Below are positions 31,922 to 45,393 of a stretch of 53,764 bases of DNA, piece after piece. Where the stretch lies: the NCBI GenBank assembly GCA_025923035.1, contig JAICGQ010000001.1, positions 1-53,764 of the forward strand, in the 5' to 3' direction. The notes beneath the pieces were generated by a model. It made no database searches. It was not told the DNA's origin and saw only the letters and a program-made list of their open reading frames with translations. Origin of the DNA: Pyrinomonadaceae bacterium. Lineage in GTDB: Bacteria; Acidobacteriota; Blastocatellia; Pyrinomonadales; Pyrinomonadaceae. A program made the translations under genes and the position numbers. The number at the start of each line of letters is the position of its first letter. The stretch's first letter is position 1.

Positions 31922-32575
31922 TCGTGTTCTGGGCTTTCTGGATTAGTCCGTCAGGGCTACTGGACTGGAACCCGTTTTTGTTCTCAACCGTTACGTCGAC
32001 TGTGTAGCTTCCGAAAGAGCGAGTGAAAGTTACATGTCACTTACAATGTGTGGTTTGGGGGGCCGGATCTCAAAAATTATTTTGTGGGTAACATGAACAG
32101 GTGCAAGGATTTACGTGAGATGCGGACACACCAACGCCCTCGGAATCGCTGCCTCAAAAAATCAGTGCGCCCCGACGGATATCACACCAACTTTTAGGTG
32201 AAAAGAACGGCATCAGAAGCCGGGCGAGTGACAACTTCTTTCGGTGGTCTAGGCCACTGGTCTCGTTCTTTTCAGCCGCGATCACCTCACACCGAGACGT
32301 CAAGCATCCCGAGTGATCGCATAGACTACCTAAGCGTTCGCTAATACTTCCGGTGGACCACAATCCACCTTTGCCAGCAATGCTATACCCAACAGAGTAT
32401 AGCGTGCAAGGATAAACTTTTGAGGGCTTTTAAGAATGAACGGCGAGACCCGACAACGACCCCACGTGAATCCGGCCGATTTGGCGGCGCACATTATCGC
32501 AGCCACTTATCCCTGTCAAGGCAGAACTCAGCCAGGCGTGTTAGAATTCACCAGCACCCAACCGGACCTCAAGCC

Positions 32576-33052
32576 ATGGCGAAGATCGATCTGAGAGAAC
32601 TAGTCTTTCTGCTGCGCGACAGGGAGAGCCCTACGCATAGACTCCTGAGCGCGTGGGCGAGTGTGCCGATGTTGTTGATGCTCGAGGAGGATTGGGAAAA
32701 GGGCCCACTGGTGATGGTTGGGTTTTCAGACCGGATGATGTGGCCGCTGCTTCCGCCCGGCACTTTGCTCCGACTGAATTCGCAGGCGCGAAAGATCGAG
32801 GATGGTCCGTGGCTGGAGTTTGAGCGTCCCATCTACCTGATCGAATGCAGAGACAGGTTCTACTGTTGTCACGCGCAGCGAAGAGGCGACACGTTGCGTT
32901 TGATCTCGCATCTCGAGTCGCCTGCTCCGCCGTCGATTACTGTTCCTATCAAAGAAGCGCGCGTACGTGGTCAACTCAAACCGGTATTCCGGCCATTGCC
33001 GACGCGCGGCACGCCCGCCGGCCGTCTACAACGCACCAATCAGACCAACTAA
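32576..33052 (+). CDS. stand-alone degenerate LexA/S24-like domain protein (no HTH)
   Basis: From MAKIDL. The VGFSDRMMWPLLPPGTLLRLN...ERPIYLIEC...RVRGQL segment is colinear with the C-terminal domain of 14998..15765, with Arg at the Ser-nucleophile position. The upstream part of the listed ORF (from 32420) is Arg-rich and unlikely to be coding. Confidence 0.5.
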   Translation: MAKIDLRELVFLLRDRESPTHRLLSAWASVPMLLMLEEDWEKGPLVMVGFSDRMMWPLLPPGTLLRLNSQARKIEDGPWLEFERPIYLIECRDRFYCCHAQRRGDTLRLISHLESPAPPSITVPIKEARVRGQLKPVFRPLPTRGTPAGRLQRTNQTN

Positions 33053-33056
33053 GAGA

Positions 33057-33668
33057 CTAGCGCCACGAGTACGTCGGCACTCTTGCTGCTCGTACGCCAT
33101 AGATCTCTTCAAACTTGCGCCACGTCTTGATCGTCGTCAACGAACGCGACGGCGCGTACCCCAGCCGTTCCGCTTTGATCGCCAGTCCGGCATAACTCAG
33201 TGTGGTCCTGGTCTTCTGTTTCAAGCGCACGAGCGTGCGCGGCAGACATTGATTCCTGCCGATGCGCATCAATCTCATCTGCGTCATGAAATCCTTGTCG
33301 GGGAATAGTAACTCCGCCGCAAAGATCTCGGCTCCGATCTCGAGCGTTTTACCGAGGTTCGACTGATCGCAATATGAGATGCCCAGGTGTCGATCGCGAT
33401 AGAAATGTTTCAACTCATGCGCCATCGTAAACACTTTCGGATCCTGCGGCAGACCGCTCGCGAGCATCACCGTCGTTCCGAGCTCATCGCAGATAAACGC
33501 GCCGCGGAGATTCCGCAGGCGATAGGGCCAGTCGTCGATCACGATTCCATTCTTTTCATAAATGCGGCGCAGGTCACTTTCGACGACGCGCGGCGACTGC
33601 AAACCGAATTCGGCGCGTACTTGCCGGGCAAGTTGTTTTAGATCTTCGTAATAAGCTTGTTGGTTCAC
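33057..33668 (-). CDS. ImmA/IrrE family metallo-endopeptidase
   Basis: HEXXH motif in MAHELKHFYRD. Size and 4-nt overlap with the upstream XRE gene are typical of XRE-COG2856 pairs. Confidence 0.8.
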   Translation of the reverse strand: MNQQAYYEDLKQLARQVRAEFGLQSPRVVESDLRRIYEKNGIVIDDWPYRLRNLRGAFICDELGTTVMLASGLPQDPKVFTMAHELKHFYRDRHLGISYCDQSNLGKTLEIGAEIFAAELLFPDKDFMTQMRLMRIGRNQCLPRTLVRLKQKTRTTLSYAGLAIKAERLGYAPSRSLTTIKTWRKFEEIYGVRAARVPTYSWR

Positions 33669-35238: not shown

Positions 35239-35270
35239 AAATGCCGCGGCAGAAACGTCGCGGCATTTTT
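35239..35270. terminator. rho-independent terminator hairpin
   Basis: AAATGCCGCG-10 nt-CGCGGCATTT followed by TTGTTT, located between convergent genes. Confidence 0.65.
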
Positions 35271-35289: not shown

Positions 35290-35649
35290 CTATGTTTTCG
35301 GTAAGCCTTCGATCGCTCTCACCGGTCGAACTTCAACCGTCCCGATACGCGCGCTGGGAAGCCGGCCCGCAATCTCGACTGCTTCTTCCATGCTCCTGGC
35401 TTCGACCATGAAATAACCGCCGATCTGTTCACGCGTCTCCGCAAACGGACCATCGGTAACGAGTCTCTTGCCGTCGCGCACCGTGACGCTGATCGTCTCT
35501 GAACTCGGATGCAGCGGCGACGCGTCGATGTACTGCCCGTTCTTATTCAGCTCGTGACAATACTGAATCGACTCGTTCAGCAACTGCACACGATAACCTT
35601 CCTCGATCTCGCTCTCATCAACGTGATGAATCAACAGCAGATATTTCAT
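35290..35649 (-). CDS. YCII-related domain protein
   Basis: MKYLLLIHH... opening and the VTDGPFAETREQIGGYFMVEA motif. Confidence 0.8.
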   Translation of the reverse strand: MKYLLLIHHVDESEIEEGYRVQLLNESIQYCHELNKNGQYIDASPLHPSSETISVTVRDGKRLVTDGPFAETREQIGGYFMVEARSMEEAVEIAGRLPSARIGTVEVRPVRAIEGLPKT

Positions 35650-35658
35650 TCGTCGTTC

Positions 35659-36462
35659 CTATTTCAGTAGTTTCGAAACGTCCAGCACTTGTTCGGGACG
35701 CGCGCGTACCCAGTAGTTCTCCGTCAGGTGGACCCAACGCACCGTTCCCGTCGTATCGATCAAAAACTCCGCGGGCCGCGAGATGTCGTGTCCGCCTTCA
35801 CCGGCGCCGGCATGAACCAGGTCGTAACGCCGGATCGCCTCGACATTCGGATCGGAAAGAATCGGAAACGTATAACCCTGCTGCTGTGCGAGGTTGCGCG
35901 ACGCTTCCGGAGTATCGACGCTGATCGCCACCGGACGAATTCCCTGCGCGTTCAACTGCTCGATGTTCTGTTGAATACCCCGCAACTCGGAGTTGCAGGA
36001 TGGTCACCAGTAACCACGATAAAAAACCAGCAACACGCCTTTCGGCGGAGTTCCATTGATCGGCGTCGAAAGCAGCTCGTTCAATGAAACAGCTTTTCCG
36101 CCGGTATCATTGAGCGTAAAGTCCGGCGCCTTCTGTCCGACTTGCGGCGCGCCTTTCGATGCCGGCAGCGCACGCCCGCCGACAAAGAAACCAACCAGAA
36201 ACAGCGCAATCACGACGACGCCCAAAGTCGTGACAATCGCAGCCACGACCTTCGAGCGCCGTCGATCACTCGCGAACGCGCGTCGCACGCCGAGGAACAG
36301 CAACCCTGCCGCGACGGCGAAGATCAACAGGTTCGCCCAGGGGAAGTCGCGCGTCACCGGATACCAAACAAAGACAGCGAGGTAACTAAAAACTCCTACC
36401 ACGCTCAACACGAAACCGAGCCACAACGGCCAGTTGAATCGTCGTACATTCATAAGTCGCAC
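35659..36462 (-). CDS. membrane-anchored AhpC/TSA (peroxiredoxin/redoxin)-like protein with in-frame TGA at the catalytic Cys position (candidate selenoprotein, U153)
   Basis: The two listed ORFs (36004..36462 and 35659..35985) are in the same frame, separated only by TGA 36004-36006. The joined sequence reads ...GQKAPDFTL...VLLVFYRGYW-U-PSCNSELRGIQ..., which matches the W-C-P-x-C redox motif. Confidence 0.6.
35977..36001 (-). ncRNA. candidate bacterial SECIS-like hairpin
   Basis: The mRNA reads UGA CC AUCCUGCAAC-UCCGA-GUUGCGGGGU, giving a 10-bp stem (3 G-U pairs) that starts 3 nt after the UGA. The apical loop lies about 16-20 nt downstream. Confidence 0.4.
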
Positions 36463-36465
36463 GCC

Positions 36466-36825
36466 TTATAAATCGACCAGTCCCTTGAAACCGCCGTACG
36501 CCATTCGCTTGACGTCGAACGGCATCGGTCCCCCTTTCATCATCTTTTCCAGGCGCGAATCGGCCATCACCTTCTTGTTCACTTTGTCGCGGTGAGCGCG
36601 GGATTTAAAGACGATGAATGAGAAGAGCACGACTTCACCCGGTTTCGGTTTCGCCAACTTGGTAAAAGGGACACCGAACTTCACGTCGAGGTCGTCGCCA
36701 ATTGCCTCGACGTATTCAAGCGCACCATGCTCTTTCCAGACCTTTCCGGCTTTCTGAGCCATGCTGCGATATGCCGTGAGGTTTTTCTCGGGAACGGAAA
36801 GTACAAATCCATCAACGTATCTCAT
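36466..36825 (-). CDS. DUF1428 family protein
   Basis: MRYVDGFVLSVPEKNLTAYRSMAQKAGKVWKEHGALEYVE is typical of DUF1428. Confidence 0.7.
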   Translation of the reverse strand: MRYVDGFVLSVPEKNLTAYRSMAQKAGKVWKEHGALEYVEAIGDDLDVKFGVPFTKLAKPKPGEVVLFSFIVFKSRAHRDKVNKKVMADSRLEKMMKGGPMPFDVKRMAYGGFKGLVDL

Positions 36826-36852
36826 GTGTTGTCCTCGTCAGATGATTTTGGT

Positions 36853-37278
36853 TTACGCGGAACCGTGCGCGCCTGCCTGCTCGACGTTGACCATCCAGGG
36901 GATGCCGAAACGATCGACGCACATGCCAAAGCCTGCGGCCCAGAACGTCGGTTGATACGGCATTTGCACCTGTCCGTTCTCCGAGAGCGCGTTGAAGATC
37001 TGTTCGCCCTTGGCCGGGTCCTGGAGTGATAACGAAACGGAAATCCCCTGAGGTTGTTGATAGTGTCCCGGAGGTGCGTCAGAGGCCATCACTCTCGTCT
37101 CGCCGATCAGCAGACTTGCGTGAAGGACTTTCTGCGCCCATTCCGCCGGAACTGTATCGCAGGCGGGGCTGCCTTCGAACGGCATACTCATTTCGATCTT
37201 GGCGCCCAATGCCTGTTCGTAAAACTTCAGGGCTTCGGCACAGTTGCCATTGAACATCAGGTACGGGTTTACGAGCAT
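36853..37278 (-). CDS. VOC/glyoxalase-fold protein (PhnB/YjdN-like)
   Basis: PYLMFNGNCAEALKFYEQALGA opening and FGIPWMVN near the C-terminus. Confidence 0.75.
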   Translation of the reverse strand: MLVNPYLMFNGNCAEALKFYEQALGAKIEMSMPFEGSPACDTVPAEWAQKVLHASLLIGETRVMASDAPPGHYQQPQGISVSLSLQDPAKGEQIFNALSENGQVQMPYQPTFWAAGFGMCVDRFGIPWMVNVEQAGAHGSA

Positions 37279-37314
37279 TGTCTTTCTCCTTTCAAATTCG
37301 GACGTGATAATTGC

Positions 37315-37692
37315 TTAGCGATGCGGATACACACGCCACCGCTCATATGCGATACACAGCAACAACAGAAGAATTACGAACGGCGCTATCGCCATTCGCA
37401 CGCCGTCGCCCATTATCGTTACGACAACGGCGCCGACCATGACGATCGCCAATCCCAACGCGGCAAGTGGCGTTAAATACTGTCTGTTCTTTAAAAGGCC
37501 AGGCAGGATCAGCCCGAGTGCGCCCAGCACTTCGACGACGCCAATGAAGCGAATGAACCAGCCGGGCAACATCACCTGGTTAGGCGAGCCCTGCTGTATC
37601 AGGACGTCGAGCGGCATGATCAACTTTGTGCCGCCCGCGAACAGGAACAACAGCGCGAGCAACACCTGGAGGATCCAAAGTACGACATTCAT
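37315..37692 (-). CDS. DoxX family membrane protein
   Basis: Four hydrophobic helices and an LQVLLALLFLFAGGTKL opening typical of DoxX. Confidence 0.7.
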   Translation of the reverse strand: MNVVLWILQVLLALLFLFAGGTKLIMPLDVLIQQGSPNQVMLPGWFIRFIGVVEVLGALGLILPGLLKNRQYLTPLAALGLAIVMVGAVVVTIMGDGVRMAIAPFVILLLLLCIAYERWRVYPHR

Positions 37693-37717
37693 CTCGATTC
37701 GTTTCCTTTACTAGAAA

Positions 37718-38131
37718 CTAACTTCGCAATGGGAGCAGCTCGCGCAGTCGAGCATCGCGCAAGTAAAGTCCGAGCCAGATCAGAACGCCGAACGTCACGG
37801 CGAAGACGACGCCAAATGCACCATCGCCCAAACGTCCCACGTGAGTGGCGACGGCGCCGCCGAGATATCCGGTCAGCAGAATTGCGCCCAGCATCGCAGT
37901 CCGTGGAACCAGGTAGAGCACGGTGCAGGCAATCAAGATTATTCCGAGAGGTATGATTACGCTCTCAGAATAACCGAGTTTGACCGTCCCTTCTACAACC
38001 GGCGCGGGCTTGAACAACTTCGCCACGCCGTCCACTAACAAAAACAGTGCGGGGAGCCAACTCACAATCCGTCCGGCCCAAACACCCTTCGCGGGCACTG
38101 GACCTGCCTGAACATTCGCTACCATAAACAT
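37718..38131 (-). CDS. DoxX-like membrane protein
   Basis: Four predicted TM helices with LFLLVDGVAKLFKP and LLTGYLGGAVATHV segments. Confidence 0.6.
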   Translation of the reverse strand: MFMVANVQAGPVPAKGVWAGRIVSWLPALFLLVDGVAKLFKPAPVVEGTVKLGYSESVIIPLGIILIACTVLYLVPRTAMLGAILLTGYLGGAVATHVGRLGDGAFGVVFAVTFGVLIWLGLYLRDARLRELLPLRS

Positions 38132-38167
38132 CTCTCCTTACATGCGCCTGAATCAGACGCTCTAACG

Positions 38168-38623
38168 TCAAGGCGTTAAATCAAGGGCCGCCCTGAAACT
38201 GCCGTCCATGTAAAAAGGCACTGACACGTGCTCGTGATCGACGAGCCATTTGCCCTCCGTTCTCTGAAAACCGATCGTCACACGGACCCAGTGATCGTTC
38301 TTCTGACCCTGCTTGCTGGTACCGCTGATATGGTTCATGCAGTAAGCGAAGGCCGCGTCAGTGCCCGCTAGTATTTTCAATCCGGTGATCTCAACGCCGA
38401 TTGGACCATCGAACGTCTTGAACCATTCTGCGAGGTTCTGTCTCGCCGTCTCTTTGCCGCGATTCTCCAGCGGCGGCGCGAGATCGAATTGCACGACGTC
38501 GTCAGCGTAATGCGATACACACCGATCGGCGTCTTTATTTCGGAGCCCCTCGCCGTAGTCTTCTATGATTGCGCGAATCTCCGCCTCGTCGGTTGTTCTG
38601 TCTGTACCTTGGGCCGCTTTCAT
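38168..38623 (-). CDS. SnoaL-like / NTF2-fold (DUF4440-type) protein
   Basis: The EIRAIIEDYGEGLRNKDADRCVSHYADDVV pattern and a length of about 150 aa. Confidence 0.6.
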   Translation of the reverse strand: MKAAQGTDRTTDEAEIRAIIEDYGEGLRNKDADRCVSHYADDVVQFDLAPPLENRGKETARQNLAEWFKTFDGPIGVEITGLKILAGTDAAFAYCMNHISGTSKQGQKNDHWVRVTIGFQRTEGKWLVDHEHVSVPFYMDGSFRAALDLTP

Positions 38624-38642
38624 ATCTTCTCCCCTCTTGAAG

Positions 38643-39005
38643 CTAATTTGCGGACGTTGGCAGACCGTTAATCTCGAGCACCGGGCGGATTTCGATCGTG
38701 CCCACTTTGGCTACCGGAATTCGTTCGGCGATGCTCATTGCCTCGTCCAGGTTGGGGGCTTCAATCAAGTAATAACCACCGAGTTGTTCGCGCGTCTCTG
38801 CAAACGGACCATCGGTTACCAACCGTTTGCCGTTGCGCACACGAACGCTCGTCGCAGTCGCTACCGGATGCAGCGGACCGGCGGAAACGTAGTTGCCGCG
38901 TTCGCTGAGATCGCGCGCGAGTTGCGCCGACTCGACATAGCAGTGTTCCCGTTCGCTGTCGCTCAGCGCCTGTTCGTCGAGATAAACCAGCAACATGTAT
39001 CTCAT
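38643..39005 (-). CDS. YCII-related domain protein
   Basis: MRYMLLVYLDE opening and the VTDGPFAETREQLGGYYLIEA motif. Divergent from the ECF sigma gene. Confidence 0.8.
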   Translation of the reverse strand: MRYMLLVYLDEQALSDSEREHCYVESAQLARDLSERGNYVSAGPLHPVATATSVRVRNGKRLVTDGPFAETREQLGGYYLIEAPNLDEAMSIAERIPVAKVGTIEIRPVLEINGLPTSAN

Positions 39006-39083
39006 GATTGTGTGCCTCCAATGATAAATCGAACGGGAAGGCCCAGGATCGACACTTCAATGTAGTTTTTTTTATTATCAAAC

Positions 39084-40340
39084 ATGCCTCCGAACCCCAA
39101 CGTTGCTGTCGACGCTGTGTATCGTTCTGATTGGGGACGGATTGTTGCGACCCTCATACGCCAATTTGGAGATTTCGAACTCGCCGAAGACGCTGCCCAG
39201 GAAGCATTCACAGCCGCCGTCGACCAATGGCGCACCGAAGGCGTACCCGATTCTCCGCGCGCCTGGATTATTCAAACAGCCAAACACAAAGCCATCGATC
39301 GGCTGCGGCGTCAGACCCGTCTACAAGAAAAGCTCGAGGAGTTTCCGGAGCTTACCATTGAGCCGACCGTCGATGGTCCAGATCTCGACTTCGCGGAGAT
39401 TCCTGACGATCGTCTGCGGCTGATATTCACATGCTGCCATCCGGCAATTTCACTGGAAGCCCAGGTCGCGCTGACGCTGCGCACTTTAGGCGGACTCCAG
39501 ACCGACGAGATCGCCCGCGCCTTTCTGGTGCCCACCGCGACGATGGCCCAACGTCTCGTCCGTGCGAAACGAAAGATCCGCGACGCTGGAATTCCCTTTT
39601 CCATTCCCGACACGAGCGACATGCCGGAGCGGCTCGACGCCGTGCTCACCGCCATCTACCTGATCTTCAACGAAGGTTACGCGCCAACACGGGGCAAACC
39701 GCTCGTCAGGGCAGATCTCTGCGCTGAGGCAATCCGTCTTGCGCGCTTAGTCACAACCCTGTTGGAACCAAATCCGCCGGTTGAAGCAACTGCGCTACTC
39801 GCTCTGATGTTGCTGCACGATTCACGACGCGAAGCACGTCTCGACGATGAGGGGGATCTCGTCATTCTTGAAGAACAGGACCGCAGCCGTTGGAACAGGC
39901 CGCAGATCGATGAGGCGTTATCGCTTGTCAATCACAAGTTGAGCGGCGCGTCCGGTCCATATGCAATCGAAGCCGCGATCTCTGCCGAACACTGCAAAGC
40001 CGCTCGTGCCGAGGACACCGACTGGCGCAGAATCGTCAGACTCTACGATCTGCTCCACGAACTACTGCCGTCGCCAATCATCGCGCTCAACCGCGCGGTC
40101 GCGATCGGCATGGCTAATGGTCCATCATCGGCGCTTGCGCTGATAGACAACCTGTCAGCGTCAGGTGAACTCGACGGCTATCACCTTCTGCATGCCGCGC
40201 GCGCCGACATGCTGCGAAGACTGGGCGCGAACCGCGAAGCGGCCGAGAGCTATGACGTCGCCCTCGGCCTCGTCAGTAACGACGGCGAGCGCCGCTTCCT
40301 CGAGCGACGCCTGCGCGAAGTCACCTCGAGCACTCACTAG
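39084..40340 (+). CDS. ECF-type RNA polymerase sigma factor with long C-terminal helical extension
   Basis: Sigma-2 (EDAAQEAFTAAVDQW...AWIIQTAKHKAIDRLRR) and sigma-4 (LRTLGGLQTDEIARAFLVPTATMAQRLVRAKRKI) regions, plus a C-terminal domain of about 220 aa. This is the architecture usually found next to YCII genes. Confidence 0.8.
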   Translation: MPPNPNVAVDAVYRSDWGRIVATLIRQFGDFELAEDAAQEAFTAAVDQWRTEGVPDSPRAWIIQTAKHKAIDRLRRQTRLQEKLEEFPELTIEPTVDGPDLDFAEIPDDRLRLIFTCCHPAISLEAQVALTLRTLGGLQTDEIARAFLVPTATMAQRLVRAKRKIRDAGIPFSIPDTSDMPERLDAVLTAIYLIFNEGYAPTRGKPLVRADLCAEAIRLARLVTTLLEPNPPVEATALLALMLLHDSRREARLDDEGDLVILEEQDRSRWNRPQIDEALSLVNHKLSGASGPYAIEAAISAEHCKAARAEDTDWRRIVRLYDLLHELLPSPIIALNRAVAIGMANGPSSALALIDNLSASGELDGYHLLHAARADMLRRLGANREAAESYDVALGLVSNDGERRFLERRLREVTSSTH

Positions 40341-40380: not shown

Positions 40381-40854
40381 CTAACCTTGTCCGCCGCCGG
40401 CGGCCATGGCCGCGAGGCGCTTGTCGATCTCTTCCGGCGTCACGTCTTCCTTGTGTGTGGCGACGGTCCAGATGTGACCGAAGGGATCTTCGAGGGTCCC
40501 GGATCGGTCACCGTAGAATTGATCCTGCAAGGCTTTCTTTTCGGTGCCGCCGGCCTCGAGTGCCTGCTTGAACATCGCGTCGCAGTCGTCGGTGTAAATC
40601 ATCAGCCCGACTGCCGAACCGCCGATCGACTTCGGTCCCCTGTAACCCATTTCCGGATGTTCGTCGGAAAGCATGAACGCCGAGTCGCCGATCTTCATTT
40701 CGGCGTGCGCGATCTTTCCTTCATGTTCCATGCGAAACAGTTCGGTCGCGCCAAACGCTGCCTTGTAGTAATCGAGCGCCCTTGCGCCGTCATCGACAAC
40801 CAAGTAAGGAGTTAACGAGTGATATCCCTCGGGAATCGGTTTTACGTCCGCCAT
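40381..40854 (-). CDS. VOC/glyoxalase-fold protein (PhnB-like)
   Basis: The internal Met gives MADVKPIPEGYHSLTPYLVVDD...FGHIWTV. The listed upstream extension to 40989 is Arg-rich and would overlap the preceding gene. Confidence 0.75.
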   Translation of the reverse strand: MADVKPIPEGYHSLTPYLVVDDGARALDYYKAAFGATELFRMEHEGKIAHAEMKIGDSAFMLSDEHPEMGYRGPKSIGGSAVGLMIYTDDCDAMFKQALEAGGTEKKALQDQFYGDRSGTLEDPFGHIWTVATHKEDVTPEEIDKRLAAMAAGGGQG

Positions 40855-40889
40855 GGTTATTTCCCTTTCGTCTGAATGTGTCTGTAGTA

Positions 40890-41756
40890 CTACTTCAACA
40901 GTTTCTTCTTGTCGACAAACGCGATGACCGCGTCGTTGAATTCCTTGCTCTTTTCGAGGTGCAGAAAGTGGTCCACACCTTCCATCCACTGCAGCTCAAG
41001 ATCGGGTGCCAGCCCTCTCAGAAACTGTTCGGTGTCAGGTGGCCAGAATGGCGATTTCGCGAGGATCGCCAACACTGGCACGTTGATCTTGTCTGAAGTG
41101 TAAAGCGAGTCGTCGTTCATCCTTTCCATCGCACTCACAAGCACATTCTGCGGAGTATTGGTGAACGACACCCAGATACGTTCCCGCTCATCAGCCGGAA
41201 GCAGCCCGGCCATCTGATCAAACATCGGCTTCGCAGCTTCTTTGTAACCGGGTGAGCGAAACGCGTTTAAGTATTGATCCCGCATCGCCTTGTCACCAAA
41301 CGGACGTAACCCGCCGTCCACGATCACGATTGCGAGCGTCTTCTTTGGATACTTGCGATAGAACTGCCGGGCCACCGGCGTGCCCATGCTGTGACCGAGG
41401 ATAACTCCCCGTTCGACTTTCGCATCTTTCATCACCGCGTCGATCGCCGCGGCGAAATGGTCCATCGTGTAGGCGAGTTCCGGTTTGTCACTCTTACCGT
41501 GTCCCGGCAAGTCGAGCGCGATCACTCTGCCGCGTTTTGCGAGGACTGGAATCTGCTTGCCCCAAGCCTCGAGATTCGAGCTCCATCCATGGACCAGCAC
41601 AAACGCATCGCTTCCCTGTCCGTAACTCTGATAATGAATCTTCGCTCCGTTGAGCGTCGCAAACTTCGACTCACCGTCTTTCGCCGAAACCACCGCCGGC
41701 ATCGCCACGAACAAAAGCAACAGTATGGGTAAGGTCTGTCTGAATTTACTACTCAT
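40890..41756 (-). CDS. secreted alpha/beta hydrolase
   Basis: Signal peptide, HGWSS oxyanion region, GHSMG nucleophile elbow, and a C-terminal His (VDHFLHLE). Confidence 0.85.
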   Translation of the reverse strand: MSSKFRQTLPILLLLFVAMPAVVSAKDGESKFATLNGAKIHYQSYGQGSDAFVLVHGWSSNLEAWGKQIPVLAKRGRVIALDLPGHGKSDKPELAYTMDHFAAAIDAVMKDAKVERGVILGHSMGTPVARQFYRKYPKKTLAIVIVDGGLRPFGDKAMRDQYLNAFRSPGYKEAAKPMFDQMAGLLPADERERIWVSFTNTPQNVLVSAMERMNDDSLYTSDKINVPVLAILAKSPFWPPDTEQFLRGLAPDLELQWMEGVDHFLHLEKSKEFNDAVIAFVDKKKLLK

Positions 41757-42568
41757 TACATCTTCTCCCTGGTCGTATTTCTGACAATGACAAGCGTCAT
41801 GTCGTCTGTGAGTGGACGCGGCGCCGCGAAGTCCTGCACCGCACCCAGAACTGAAAAGAGTACCGCCTCGGCCGAACCGCCTTGCGCGCGTCGAAACTCA
41901 GCCTCGAGACGTTCCCCGCCAAACTCCCGCTCGGCTTCATCAAACGATTCAAGAATGCCGTCCGAACAAACGAGCATCACGTCTTCAGATCGCAGTTGCA
42001 CTGATCCACAAGCGAACGAAGCTGACGGCACGACGCCAAGCACGGGCCCGCCTTCGGAAAGCGATTCGAGCCGCGCATCCGCTCGTAACAACAATGCTGA
42101 CGGGTGTCCTGCGCTGCAATAATCGAGCGTCCCGGTGCTGGAATCAAGTCGTCCGATGAACATCGTGCTCAACGGCTCGACTTCCGACAGACTGGCGACG
42201 TCGCGATTAACTGCGGCGGCAATCGCATGCGGCTCGCTGTTGACCGCGGTGTGCGTGCGAATCAGACCGATCAGATGCGTCACCCACATTCCCGCCGCAA
42301 GTCCTTTGCCGCCGATATCGCCGAGCGCAAACACCAGACCGCGATCGGTTTCTGCGACCGTGAAGAAATCGCCGGGCAAGTGACGCACGGCGAAAACTTC
42401 ACTGGCGATGTCAAACGGTCCGTAATGAATCAAACTCGGCGCACACAAACGACGATGCACCTGCGCGGCCTCAAAGATCGCGGCGTTCAAATCAGCGTAA
42501 TCCCTTTGTAGTGTCTCGAGCCGCTGCTCCAATTCGTTGCGCGGACTCAGCGCTGCCGCTGCGGACAT
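41756..42568 (-). CDS. PP2C/SpoIIE-family serine phosphatase
   Basis: GDFF...GDIGGKGLAAGMW...CSAGHP...DGILE...TDDMTLV motifs. The stop overlaps the hydrolase start by 1 nt. Confidence 0.8.
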   Translation of the reverse strand: MSAAAALSPRNELEQRLETLQRDYADLNAAIFEAAQVHRRLCAPSLIHYGPFDIASEVFAVRHLPGDFFTVAETDRGLVFALGDIGGKGLAAGMWVTHLIGLIRTHTAVNSEPHAIAAAVNRDVASLSEVEPLSTMFIGRLDSSTGTLDYCSAGHPSALLLRADARLESLSEGGPVLGVVPSASFACGSVQLRSEDVMLVCSDGILESFDEAEREFGGERLEAEFRRAQGGSAEAVLFSVLGAVQDFAAPRPLTDDMTLVIVRNTTREKM

Positions 42569-42580
42569 ATCTCGAAGTCC

Positions 42581-43264
42581 TCATCCAACAAATTTGTAGC
42601 CACTGCCATGAACGGTAAGAATGAAACGCGGCTCTTCCGGATTTGGTTCCAGCTTCTGCCTGAGATGAACGATGTGTGTGTCGACAGTACGTGTGGACGG
42701 ATAATTCTCATATCCCCACACCGCATCGAGCAGTCGATCGCGACTCAACGTTTCCACCGGATGAGCGATGAAGTACGCCAGCAACGCAAACTCTTTCGCC
42801 GAGAGATCAACCAGATTTCCATTGCGCCTGACTTCGTTGCTGCGAACGTTGACCTCGATATCACTGAACTTGTAAACCTCCGGCGCCGCCGCCGGTGCTG
42901 AAACTCGACGCAACACGGCTTTGACGCGCGCCATCAGCTCCCGCACGGAAAACGGTTTAGTGACGTAATCATCAGCACCCAACTCCAGACCGACAACTTT
43001 GTCGATCTCCTGGCCGCGTGCGGTCAACATGATGATGGGCGTCGAGGGACGTTTTGCTTTCAGTTGTTTGCAAACGTCGAGGCCGCTCATGCGCGGCATC
43101 ATGACGTCGAGCACGACGAGATCCGGGTTCTCAGATAACGCGCGTTCGAGTCCGCTGGCGCCGTCTTCCGCGCTGATGACTTCGTAACCTTCGTATTCGA
43201 AGTTGTCGCGCAGTCCGGCAACCATTGCGGGTTCATCTTCGACGATCAGAATCTTGCTTTTCAT
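42581..43264 (-). CDS. OmpR/PhoB-family response regulator
   Basis: Receiver domain (ILIVEDEP...VLDVMMP...MLTA) plus a winged-helix output domain (RTVDTHIVHLRQKLE...GSGYKF). Confidence 0.9.
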   Translation of the reverse strand: MKSKILIVEDEPAMVAGLRDNFEYEGYEVISAEDGASGLERALSENPDLVVLDVMMPRMSGLDVCKQLKAKRPSTPIIMLTARGQEIDKVVGLELGADDYVTKPFSVRELMARVKAVLRRVSAPAAAPEVYKFSDIEVNVRSNEVRRNGNLVDLSAKEFALLAYFIAHPVETLSRDRLLDAVWGYENYPSTRTVDTHIVHLRQKLEPNPEEPRFILTVHGSGYKFVG

Positions 43265-43283
43265 GACCTGCCCCCTTTGGCTT

Positions 43284-43378
43284 ATTGGCGATTGTCGATT
43301 GCCAATTGCCGATTTTAAGACCCTGGAAGTTCAACCAGCACTGCAACAATCGGCAATCGGCAATTGCAAATCGGCAAT
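43284..43378. repeat. imperfect 31-nt inverted repeat built from tandem heptamers (ATTGCCG / CAATCGG)
   Basis: The arms at 43284-43314 and 43348-43378 match at 26 of 31 positions as reverse complements. Each arm contains about 4 copies of a 7-mer. Located between the kinase stop and the regulator start. Confidence 0.7.
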
Positions 43379-43388
43379 CCTCAATCCC

Positions 43389-45143
43389 TCACGCAGCGCT
43401 GGTTCCCGGCTGCGGCCCTGCCAGCGGCAACGTCATCGTGAACTTACTTCCGCGTCCGGGCGCGCTTTCAACTTCGACATGACCGCCGTGAGCGTGCGTG
43501 ATGTGTTGGACCAGCGACAAACCGAGTCCGCTTCCCTTCGTGTTGTGTACCAGCGGATCGCCGGTGCGATAAAACTTCTCGAAGATGCGCGCCTGATCGT
43601 TGCGATCGATCCCGATCCCTCGATCGACGACTTCGAGCTTCAGCACGGCGTTAACGCGATACAGCTTCACGCCCAGGAATTTGTCATGGTCGGAATATTT
43701 CAACGCGTTGTTGACCAGATTGACAAGCGCTCGCGCGATCGCTTCGCGGTCGACCCGAACCGGCGGAATGCTCGTGTCGATCTGTTGTTCCAGCGCGAAA
43801 CCCTGTTGCTCGATCTGGTAGCGATACGAGTCGAGCGTATTGCGCACCAACTCGGCGATATCAGTTTCGCGAAAGTCGTACTCCTTGCGGCCCGCTTCGA
43901 TACGCGAGAAGTCGAGGATGTTATTGATTAAGGCACTGAGCCGTTCACTTTCTTTGCGAATGATGCCGTAGTACTCGAGCTTCTTTTCCTGCGTTGTGAT
44001 GCGCCCGAGTTCCAGCGTCTCCGCGTACAAGCGAATCAACGCCAACGGTGTGCGCAACTCGTGCGACACGTTCGATACGAAGTCAGACTTCAAGCGCGCC
44101 AGCGCCATCTGTTTGTTGACGCTGCGATACGTCAGCACCAGTCCGCCGGCCATGAAAATCGACAACACGCCGAGAATCAGCATGCTCTCCCGAACAAACC
44201 GGTTGCCGATCGCTTCCGCCGTTGTGCCCTGAAACTTGATGCCCATCGCCAGCCCGCGAAACGGATCGTCGAGCGTTTGCGAGACTTCAGGTTTACCCGT
44301 TCCCCATCCAGTTGACATTGCAAGAGGACGATCAGGTTCTGATTTTTGCGCGTCACCCGGATAGATCTTCATGGCCAGACGCTGATCCTTCTGCTCGTTC
44401 ACTTGCCGTGCCGTTAGCTCGTGAAACATCGGTCCGCCGCGGTCGCCCTGATAGTCGTCAAATTTTTGCGACGTGAAGGCATCCAGAAACTCCGGAAAGA
44501 ATTTGTCTTTCAGATAATCGGCGCCGAAGCGCGCGCCCCCCAGCACCATGCGTCCTTCAGATGAAGCCATTTTCGGAACCGTAAAGATCGCCGTAGTGGA
44601 ATAACGCGGGGTGCCTGGTTCATGTCCTTCCCCGGCAAACCAGATTATCGGTTTTGGTTTCCGCTCGATCTGCTCGCCGAGGTACGAGCCTTCCAGGCTG
44701 AACCAGCCGTTGTACATATCGGCGAAGTCTTTAAGCTCGTCCTCTTTTCCGGGTTGGACCTCGACAATTGCTCCCTTTTTGGTCTCTTTGAAAACTTTGG
44801 AGTCGAAAAGGAAAACGTGATCGAACCAGGGGCTTTTCTGCAGGATGAGTCTGAGTTTAGCTCGTTTCTCCTCTTCTGAATCGGCGTCATTCGGGAAGGC
44901 GTTGCGTGCGTCTTCCGTCATGCGGTACGTCTCGCCGTTCAACTCTTTGATGCCGGTGTAAAGCAGGTACTGGAAATCGCGATGGATGAGCGCCTGAATC
45001 TTTCTGTCGCGCTTGATCGATTTGACGTGTTGAAAACTGACGTAAATGAGAGCCAGCGCCGGGAGCACCACAGCGAGTCCGAGCGTCAGGACAAGCCGGA
45101 ACCGGGTGTTGCCTCCCAGGAACGCTCGTCGTTTTGACTTCAT
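43389..45143 (-). CDS. sensor histidine kinase
   Basis: N-terminal TM helix, a periplasmic region, a second TM helix, H-box SHELRTPL, N-box NLVNNALKYS, and G-box GSGLGLSLV. ATG 45143 has a GGAGG RBS and is preferred over the listed 45215. Confidence 0.9.
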   Translation of the reverse strand: MKSKRRAFLGGNTRFRLVLTLGLAVVLPALALIYVSFQHVKSIKRDRKIQALIHRDFQYLLYTGIKELNGETYRMTEDARNAFPNDADSEEEKRAKLRLILQKSPWFDHVFLFDSKVFKETKKGAIVEVQPGKEDELKDFADMYNGWFSLEGSYLGEQIERKPKPIIWFAGEGHEPGTPRYSTTAIFTVPKMASSEGRMVLGGARFGADYLKDKFFPEFLDAFTSQKFDDYQGDRGGPMFHELTARQVNEQKDQRLAMKIYPGDAQKSEPDRPLAMSTGWGTGKPEVSQTLDDPFRGLAMGIKFQGTTAEAIGNRFVRESMLILGVLSIFMAGGLVLTYRSVNKQMALARLKSDFVSNVSHELRTPLALIRLYAETLELGRITTQEKKLEYYGIIRKESERLSALINNILDFSRIEAGRKEYDFRETDIAELVRNTLDSYRYQIEQQGFALEQQIDTSIPPVRVDREAIARALVNLVNNALKYSDHDKFLGVKLYRVNAVLKLEVVDRGIGIDRNDQARIFEKFYRTGDPLVHNTKGSGLGLSLVQHITHAHGGHVEVESAPGRGSKFTMTLPLAGPQPGTSAA

Positions 45144-45393
45144 GTTCGCCTCCGTGAGATGTGACAAAGCGGGGCCGAGCATACGCTCAACGGCCGGGCG
45201 CTGTGTCAAGCTCAAGTAAAAATTTGTTAAGAGTTGTGAATTCGGCGGAGATTGTAATTCACAGCCTCTTGAGATCTTGAATCCGTTACCTTAAAGGCGT
45301 GACGCGCGCTGGCGGGAGGTACATGGAATACGGGATCCTGAAGCACGCGAATATTTCTTTGTTTATAGGCCGCCATGGTCTATAAACAGAGCG

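Follow-up and report, generated by a model that had tools for sequence, protein, structure and literature searches.

Whether a TGA that interrupts a peroxiredoxin-like reading frame ends translation or encodes selenocysteine (Sec, U) is the question raised by a 53,764-nucleotide stretch of DNA from a Pyrinomonadaceae bacterium (NCBI GenBank assembly GCA_025923035.1, contig JAICGQ010000001.1, positions 1 to 53,764; hereafter the window). Two minus-strand open reading frames (ORFs) in the same frame, 36004..36462 and 35659..35985, are parted solely by the TGA at 36006..36004. Their joined product is ...KGVLLVFYRGYW*PSCNSELRGIQQNIEQL, which around the codon reads FYRGYW-U150-P-S-C153-NSELRG. A preliminary description of the window had noticed this split, placed it at the position of a catalytic motif and put forward a candidate selenoprotein. 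Sequence, ORF list and translation agree on the split, and the proposal is upheld by the same TGA in every related locus compared, a Cys/Sec pair, purifying selection downstream of the codon, a hairpin of frozen bases and the lack of codon reassignment. Judged from these comparisons of sequence, UGA at codon 150 very probably encodes Sec, in an overlooked membrane-anchored peroxiredoxin-like selenoprotein of the known UxxC type.

Residues are counted here from the ATG at 36453, and the gene and its parts lie on the minus strand throughout (Table 1). This ATG is the likely start because homologues begin MN/MT..RR.NWPLW, and with this start the TGA is codon 150 and the redox motif is U150-P-S-C153. 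Full-length homologues of ~260 amino acids align with the 264-residue product from end to end. The commonest ordinary stop in the window is TGA, which ends 14 of the 30 long ORFs (e.g., that of an OmpR-type regulator at ...GYKFVG), so the codon is not reassigned in this organism.

The comparison covered 161 related loci, comprising 80 metagenome loci, the 80 best-matching GTDB species-representative genomes and a single long contig from JGI. The named genomes, 80 in all, are metagenome-assembled and belong to Pyrinomonadaceae, Blastocatellia or Acidobacteriota; two loci, L103 and L160, lie on complete chromosomes of this kind (OY970193.1 and OY969701.1, respectively). At protein identities of 58-92%, the codon is TGA in 161/161 fetched loci, and the reading frame is held across it in all of them with zero shifts. 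The pairwise ratio of nonsynonymous to synonymous divergence (dN/dS) amounts to 0.156 for the part before the TGA and 0.121 for residues 160-264 behind it (dS 1.65), at a dS of about 1.7. The low downstream ratio indicates that the part after the TGA is translated and selected.

The codon has also left its mark on protein databases. Among the proteins that a search brought up are dozens of fragments of 147-154 residues (81-100% identity), every one stopping at the same Trp, together with full-length proteins of ~260 residues (48-66% identity) that carry Cys or, in JGI calls, Trp at the TGA column. The metagenome loci (L002-L081) have TGA at the JGI 'Trp' position in 80/80 cases, and on this basis the Trp forms are probably TGA codons mistranslated under a TGA=Trp code picked by the gene caller. 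Such calling on short contigs would be a systematic artefact that masks selenoprotein genes. The calls in question (P0002, P0003, P0004, P0006, P0009, P0014, P0019 and P0038) are full-length 'peroxiredoxin' entries from short soil contigs in which the Sec position reads Trp (YWWPxC). For the 149-residue N-terminal fragment, JGI records (P0018, P0021, P0028 and others) give the name 'predicted PurR-regulated permease PerM' and NCBI records 'hypothetical protein'; both names are mis-annotations arising from the split at the TGA. Every public record inspected either splits the gene into a membrane fragment and a truncated AhpC/TSA ORF or reads the TGA as Trp.

Beyond the TGA, a short run of synonymous sites is frozen. 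Codon usage was compared in 159 unique gene sequences, base pairs were surveyed in 141 sequences and the core was counted in 162 TGA-bearing genes. Following C153, Ser155 is TCC, Glu156 is GAG and Arg158 is CGG in 159/159 genes, Asn154 is AAC in 149/151, and Leu157 is TTG or TTA. Elsewhere in the gene, all six codons appear at Arg columns (1.7-2.3 bits), and the columns of Pro, Gly, Val and Leu show free variation. Over the nine codons following the TGA, dS drops from about 1.7 to 0.54. The frozen bases have the family consensus ACUCCG-AGUUN-CGGRGY, a 17-nt hairpin beginning 10 nt past the UGA, with a stem of 5-6 bp and a 5-nt loop (AGUUN) that starts 16 nt after the UGA and carries G at position 2, then U. 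Five pairs are retained in 141/141 sequences and the sixth, A-U, in 61; the consensus fold from RNAalifold is the same stem-loop of 5 bp, with the outer A-U pair missing. The exact 13-nt core occurs in 158 of the 162 genes, and the four exceptions all carry C-to-U changes under which a G-U pair persists. Two of them (L050 629-661 and L150 2776-2808) change Ser155 to Phe (TCC to TTC) with the pair kept as G-U, and here RNA pairing seems to be preserved at the expense of an amino-acid change beside the active site.

The rules compiled for bacterial Sec insertion sequence (SECIS) elements give an apical loop of 3-9 nt, an upper stem of 4-16 bp, a UGA-to-loop distance of 16-37 nt, a G at the first or second position of the loop, with G or U usually next, and a free energy of -7.5 kcal/mol or lower (PMC13188914). 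The loop, stem, G-U and spacing of the 17-nt hairpin fall within these ranges, with the 16-nt spacing at the lower bound. On this pattern of conservation, the hairpin is taken as the functional element and candidate SECIS, in preference to the one drawn in the preliminary description. The latter, AUCCUGCAAC paired with GUUGCGGGGU, does form in the window according to ViennaRNA, as 11 bp with a CCG loop (-16.7 kcal/mol, z -3.97; 1/200 shuffles as stable), but it is not conserved, and its outer half is specific to the window. As a conserved element it was rejected on several counts: (i) 34/141 sequences break pair 18-30, which joins the third positions of Cys and Leu, with no C/U-G/A covariation, (ii) in 50-72% of relatives the outer bases do not pair, and shuffles match the observed scores, and (iii) the invariant third G of CGG is left unexplained. 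Its distance from the UGA, which the preliminary description called compatible with a bacterial SECIS, is only 12-13 nt, and its loop has no early G.

Natural variants at the Sec position allow the frozen bases to be compared with the codon itself. Rarer full-length homologues carry Cys at the TGA column, giving CxxC, and the DNA of seven such Cys-form genes reads TGC or TGT there. One of them, P0001 (locus L165), shares the operon order DUF1428 - Prx - YCII with the window gene and is thus a true orthologue in which Sec is exchanged for Cys. Alignment with Cys-containing orthologues, suggested beforehand as a check, does place the TGA column at the first Cys of CxxC (WCPHC in ResA, and the Cys-form homologues). 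At least one frozen base is lost in 6/7 Cys-form genes (variants CTT, CTG, TCG, CGC, AAT/TAT and one fully diverged stretch), compared with 4-5 deviants among 162 TGA genes (Fisher p about 1e-7). The nucleotide constraint thus tracks the TGA, as a SECIS should.

The syntenic Cys orthologue at L165 10001-10804 (NCBI JBJSWE010064495.1) and that at L166 have the motif W-C-I-M-C and retain AAC TCC GAG CTT CGG, a 'fossil' of the hairpin with a U-to-C change in the loop. By its sequence, this form looks like a recent Sec-to-Cys conversion, an event rated rare in bacteria (2026 review).

The joined protein comprises an N-terminal membrane anchor and a peroxiredoxin-fold domain. An AlphaFold model was made on P0001, which has a 3-residue insertion before helix 3 (pLDDT 94.4, pTM 0.88), and gives helices at 8-26, 39-59 and 68-97 followed by an alpha/beta domain. 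Of the three to four transmembrane segments described earlier, hydropathy and AlphaFold agree on an N-terminal anchor with three helices, not four. The loop between helices 1 and 2 holds a nearly invariant P-x-T-R-D-F-P-W motif (residues 32-39; 36337-36360), of which P32, T34, R35, D36, P38 and W39 are invariant in the alignment. Helices 2 and 3 are joined by a strongly basic loop, RRAFASDRRRSK, and by the positive-inside rule the N-terminus is predicted to lie inside and the catalytic domain in the periplasm. Under this predicted topology, the PxTRDFPW loop would be on the same membrane side as the catalytic domain. Pfam gave nothing above cut-off for the anchor, with a weak TgpA_N match only. 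An exhaustive profile-free search with the anchor alone gave 295 cluster representatives, most of those listed shorter than about 200 residues and many about 145-157, the size expected of calls ending at the TGA, with few full-length ones of about 260-270; among the matches listed, no other domain partner was seen, and the anchor turned up in this protein family only.

The soluble domain belongs to AhpC/TSA (Table 1), and Pfam Redoxin also matches the joined protein (2e-17). Curated NCBIfam models all score below cut-off: ResA NF002854 (57.2/170 bits), SelL_rel_redox NF040769 (53.5/120), PrxU NF040737 (27/270) and WAxxUGC_long NF041054 (17.5/300). The best Foldseek matches of the domain are Bcp4 (3hjp) and AhpE (1xxu), with a target TM-score of 0.90, rmsd of 1.7-1.8 A and 28-32% identity, and the closest proteins by sequence are Aeropyrum pernix Bcp, then ResA, with 2cx3 as the best match (E 2.3e-15). 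In these alignments, the Sec150 column corresponds to the first Cys of the ResA CxxC and to the Ser/Thr of the peroxiredoxin (Prx) T/SxxC, and Cys153 and Arg226, both invariant, stand at the peroxidatic-Cys and catalytic-Arg positions. The canonical PxxxT/SxxC motif is altered to R-G-Y-W-U-P-S-C, with Pro replaced by Arg and Thr/Ser by Sec. The alignments to ResA and Prx thus point to a Prx-fold enzyme with a thioredoxin-style U-x-x-C centre, not one of PrxU type. The TGA had been assigned to the catalytic Cys, which holds only in the thioredoxin/ResA sense of the first Cys of CxxC; the peroxidatic Cys, however, is C153.

Among known systems, the nearest are the Prx-like thiol:disulfide oxidoreductase selenoproteins (PF00578, UxxC/UxxU; Kryukov and Gladyshev, 2004), a predicted family represented by WP_010940744.1 of Geobacter sulfurreducens and tabulated together with related UxxC Redoxin and UxxS Prx-like entries (PMC13188914). 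The preliminary description called UxxC Prx-like selenoproteins an established class; the AhpC/TSA UxxC family has been recognised, as a prediction, since 2004 (PMC13188914). The window protein shares with this family the AhpC/TSA fold, Sec as the first residue of UxxC and a candidate SECIS within the coding region after the UGA, and it adds the three-helix anchor and the conserved loop motif. Its membership in the class is well supported by the PF00578 domain and the UxxC motif. It also differs in host, since it comes from aerobic soil Blastocatellia, whereas the selenoprotein-rich hosts listed for the family in a 2006 survey were anaerobic Deltaproteobacteria and a clostridium. PrxU (TxxU) has the same fold, with Cys153 and Arg226 of the window protein at the peroxidatic Cys and catalytic Arg of Prx; however, Sec in PrxU stands in for the peroxidatic Cys, whereas here it takes the place of a Thr located three residues before that position, and Arg is found in place of the Pro of PxxxTxxC. 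The W-C-P-x-C-type motif of ResA/TlpA/CcmG aligns residue for residue, these proteins are likewise tethered to the membrane with a catalytic domain that in the window protein is predicted to be extracytoplasmic, and ResA is the best NCBIfam match, though under cut-off. In contrast, they are held by a single helix or a lipoprotein anchor and have a thioredoxin-like (TlpA) fold, whereas the window protein has three helices and its nearest structures are Bcp4 and AhpE. BCP/PrxQ and AhpE (3hjp, 1xxu and 2cx3) are the best structural and sequence matches, yet they are soluble and have neither CxxC/UxxC nor Sec.

For the RNA element, the reference is the minimal SECIS of E. coli fdhF, a 17-nt upper stem-loop that lies 11 nt away from the UGA and whose loop carries G23/U24 (PMC8659212). 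Both elements are 17 nt long and lie within the ORF, 10 nt after the UGA in the window and 11 nt in fdhF, and the loop G-U falls at nt 21-22 from the U of UGA in the former and 23-24 in the latter. The window hairpin differs in having no bulged U in the 5' arm, a stem of 5-6 bp and no conserved lower stem, and its sequence is unrelated.

From the conserved UGA, the Cys/Sec pair, the downstream selection, the frozen hairpin, the fold and the three helices, we infer a route for SelB dependence, membrane topology, substrate and regulation. UGA at codon 150 would be read as Sec during translation to give a 264-residue selenoprotein, with the hairpin 10 nt downstream, its loop G-U exposed, bringing SelB and its Sec-tRNA(Sec) to the ribosome in the manner of the SECIS in E. 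coli fdhF. The three transmembrane helices would anchor the product with its peroxiredoxin-fold domain facing the periplasm. There, the U150-x-x-C153 pair may cycle between selenol/thiol and selenenylsulfide, and so reduce envelope peroxides or oxidised thiols. The gene would work within a stress and detoxification operon associated with an extracytoplasmic function (ECF) sigma factor.

Several observations weigh against Sec insertion at this codon. In the window (35962-36006, minus strand), the competing 11-bp hairpin is favoured (-16.7 vs -6.6 kcal/mol) and would mask the 17-nt hairpin, a greater stability that is found in this window only. The free energy of the 17-mer (-6.6 in the window; family mean -7.2, range -5.8 to -8.7 kcal/mol) is borderline relative to the -7.5 rule, and the hairpin, being short with an invariant core, has no compensatory covariation. 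Rfam matched no family, over the whole window at gathering thresholds or over 35850-36100 permissively. In the window and 1.5 Mb of loci of the same neighbourhood, tblastn with E. coli proteins found no match to selA, selB or selD. ARAGORN found no tRNA, and hence no tRNA-Sec, in the window or 161 same-neighbourhood loci. As all these loci cover one neighbourhood, both negatives carry little weight. No other gene with a conserved in-frame TGA was found in any of the fetched loci, the remaining clusters being off-frame noise or true stops. A plasmid search gave no acidobacterial selA. In favour of Sec, published surveys credit Candidatus Chloracidobacterium thermophilum B, along with several further Acidobacteria, with SelD, SelA and SelB (Peng et al., 2016, Table S1), and NCBI taxonomy places Chloracidobacterium and Pyrinomonadaceae together in class Blastocatellia. 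By this class-level analogy, the Sec trait is plausible in the genomes that carry the gene.

Other fates of the UGA account for part of these data. A suppressor or near-cognate tRNA (an allo-tRNA or a tRNA-Sec-like tRNA-Cys) might insert Ser, Cys, Trp or Gly, with the hairpin as a stimulator of read-through; allo-tRNAs, which are possible nonsense suppressors, have been reported from Acidobacteria, and no covariation ties the hairpin to SelB. However, the allo-tRNA reports come from other acidobacterial lineages, selC* tRNA-Cys has not been reported from Acidobacteria, and a general suppressor would be costly where TGA is the main ordinary stop. The recoded site is the redox-active first Cys of CxxC and is Cys in homologues, which is the signature of Sec, the loop G-U and spacing match SelB-type SECIS rules, and the Sec trait, common among Acidobacteria, also occurs in the same class. 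Recoding to another amino acid is thus very unlikely, and it is highly unlikely that this UGA would be decoded without SelA/SelB/SelC, by a suppressor-type tRNA and the 17-nt hairpin acting as a new site-specific recoding signal in an abundant soil lineage.

Alternatively, the UGA may simply terminate translation, leaving a 149-residue membrane protein, with the AhpC/TSA part made separately or never (a split gene or programmed truncation). Public gene callers do annotate 147-154-residue fragments and a 108-residue AhpC-TSA ORF, and partial stopping at UGA is expected even for true selenoprotein genes. However, the first downstream start (TTG, 35985) lies past C153, so a separate product would be without the redox motif, though P-x-C-N-S-E is strongly conserved. 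The unbroken frame across the TGA in 161/161 loci and the single polypeptides of the Cys-form homologues also argue against termination, which leaves the frozen synonymous sites unexplained and is highly unlikely. A pseudogene, strain-specific nonsense mutation or sequencing error, named at the outset as a possible refutation, has the presence of the stop codon in its favour and nothing else; with 161 independent assemblies, drawn from many studies and 80 species, sharing the same TGA, dS near saturation and dN/dS of 0.12 downstream, it can be practically dismissed.

With UGA at codon 150 read as Sec, what is new is modest: the three-helix anchor, the compact candidate SECIS, the consistent mis-annotation and the TGA form in 80/80 best-matching species-representative genomes. 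The decoding mechanism would be the standard bacterial one, and knowledge of how Sec is encoded is unchanged. In the literature searched, no paper tied selenoproteins to Pyrinomonadaceae or Blastocatellia. Blastocatellia, Pyrinomonadaceae among them, are abundant aerobic bacteria of soil, and recognising the gene would repair annotation in hundreds of genomes and metagenome contigs and point to a need for selenium across the family in a major soil clade. The UxxC Prx-like selenoproteins would gain an architecture that is anchored in the membrane and probably faces the periplasm, and the gene would supply a very compact, sharply defined 17-nt SECIS with natural Sec-to-Cys revertants as controls.

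Table 1. Positions in the window of the candidate selenoprotein gene, its parts and the neighbouring features.
Feature	Position	Strand	Evidence or remarks
Complete selenoprotein gene (candidate)	35659..36453	-	ATG 36453, TGA 36006..36004, stop TAG 35661..35659; 264 codons/residues; three transmembrane helices and AhpC/TSA domain
In-frame TGA, codon 150, proposed selenocysteine	36004..36006	-	TGA in 161/161 related loci; TGC/TGT in 7 Cys-form genes
Redox motif U150-P-S-C153 (UxxC)	35995..36006	-	C153 invariant; aligns with CPHC of ResA and S-P-V-C (peroxidatic) of A. pernix Bcp
Conserved 17-nt hairpin ACUCCG-AGUUG-CGGGGU, candidate bacterial SECIS	35977..35993	-	Frozen synonymous sites, conserved pairs, RNAalifold
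Hairpin of the preliminary description (AUCCUGCAAC / GUUGCGGGGU)	35977..36001	-	ViennaRNA; overlaps and excludes the conserved 17-nt hairpin
N-terminal membrane anchor, three hydrophobic helices	36175..36426	-	Hydropathy; residues about 10-30, 38-57, 68-93
AhpC/TSA (peroxiredoxin-fold) domain, residues 105-240	35734..36141	-	Pfam PF00578, E 1.1e-30, 106.6 bits vs cut-off 26
Eight-gene tightly packed cluster	35290..39005	-	YCII, SnoaL, DoxX_2, DoxX, glyoxalase/PhnB-like, DUF1428, Sec-Prx, YCII
ECF-type sigma factor (Sigma70_r2/r4 + DUF6596)	39084..40340	+	Divergent from cluster; synteny kept in relatives

The candidate selenoprotein gene is the seventh of eight in its cluster, and the same order is found in L001 and L165. 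The divergent ECF sigma factor likely regulates the cluster, and the conserved order suggests that the two (35290-40340) probably form one stress or detoxification regulon. Just past the final gene of the cluster, a stem-loop with a perfect palindromic stem of 12 bp, followed by a T-run on the plus strand (35239-35268), is likely a terminator that closes the operon and, being palindromic, may act in both directions.

Further genes lie on either side. A minus-strand block at 40381-45215, adjacent to the cluster and syntenic in L001 and L165, encodes in sequence a histidine kinase candidate (43389..45215) named from synteny with L001, a response regulator of OmpR type (42581..43264) and a SpoIIE/PP2C phosphatase (41756..42568), and then an alpha/beta hydrolase and a glyoxalase. 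On the other side, the region 32420-33668 holds a Peptidase_M78 (ImmA/IrrE-like) ORF (33057..33668), and the relatives L001 and L165 pair M78 with an HTH_3/XRE regulator, a combination that is common as a toxin-antitoxin-like or stress-switch pair.

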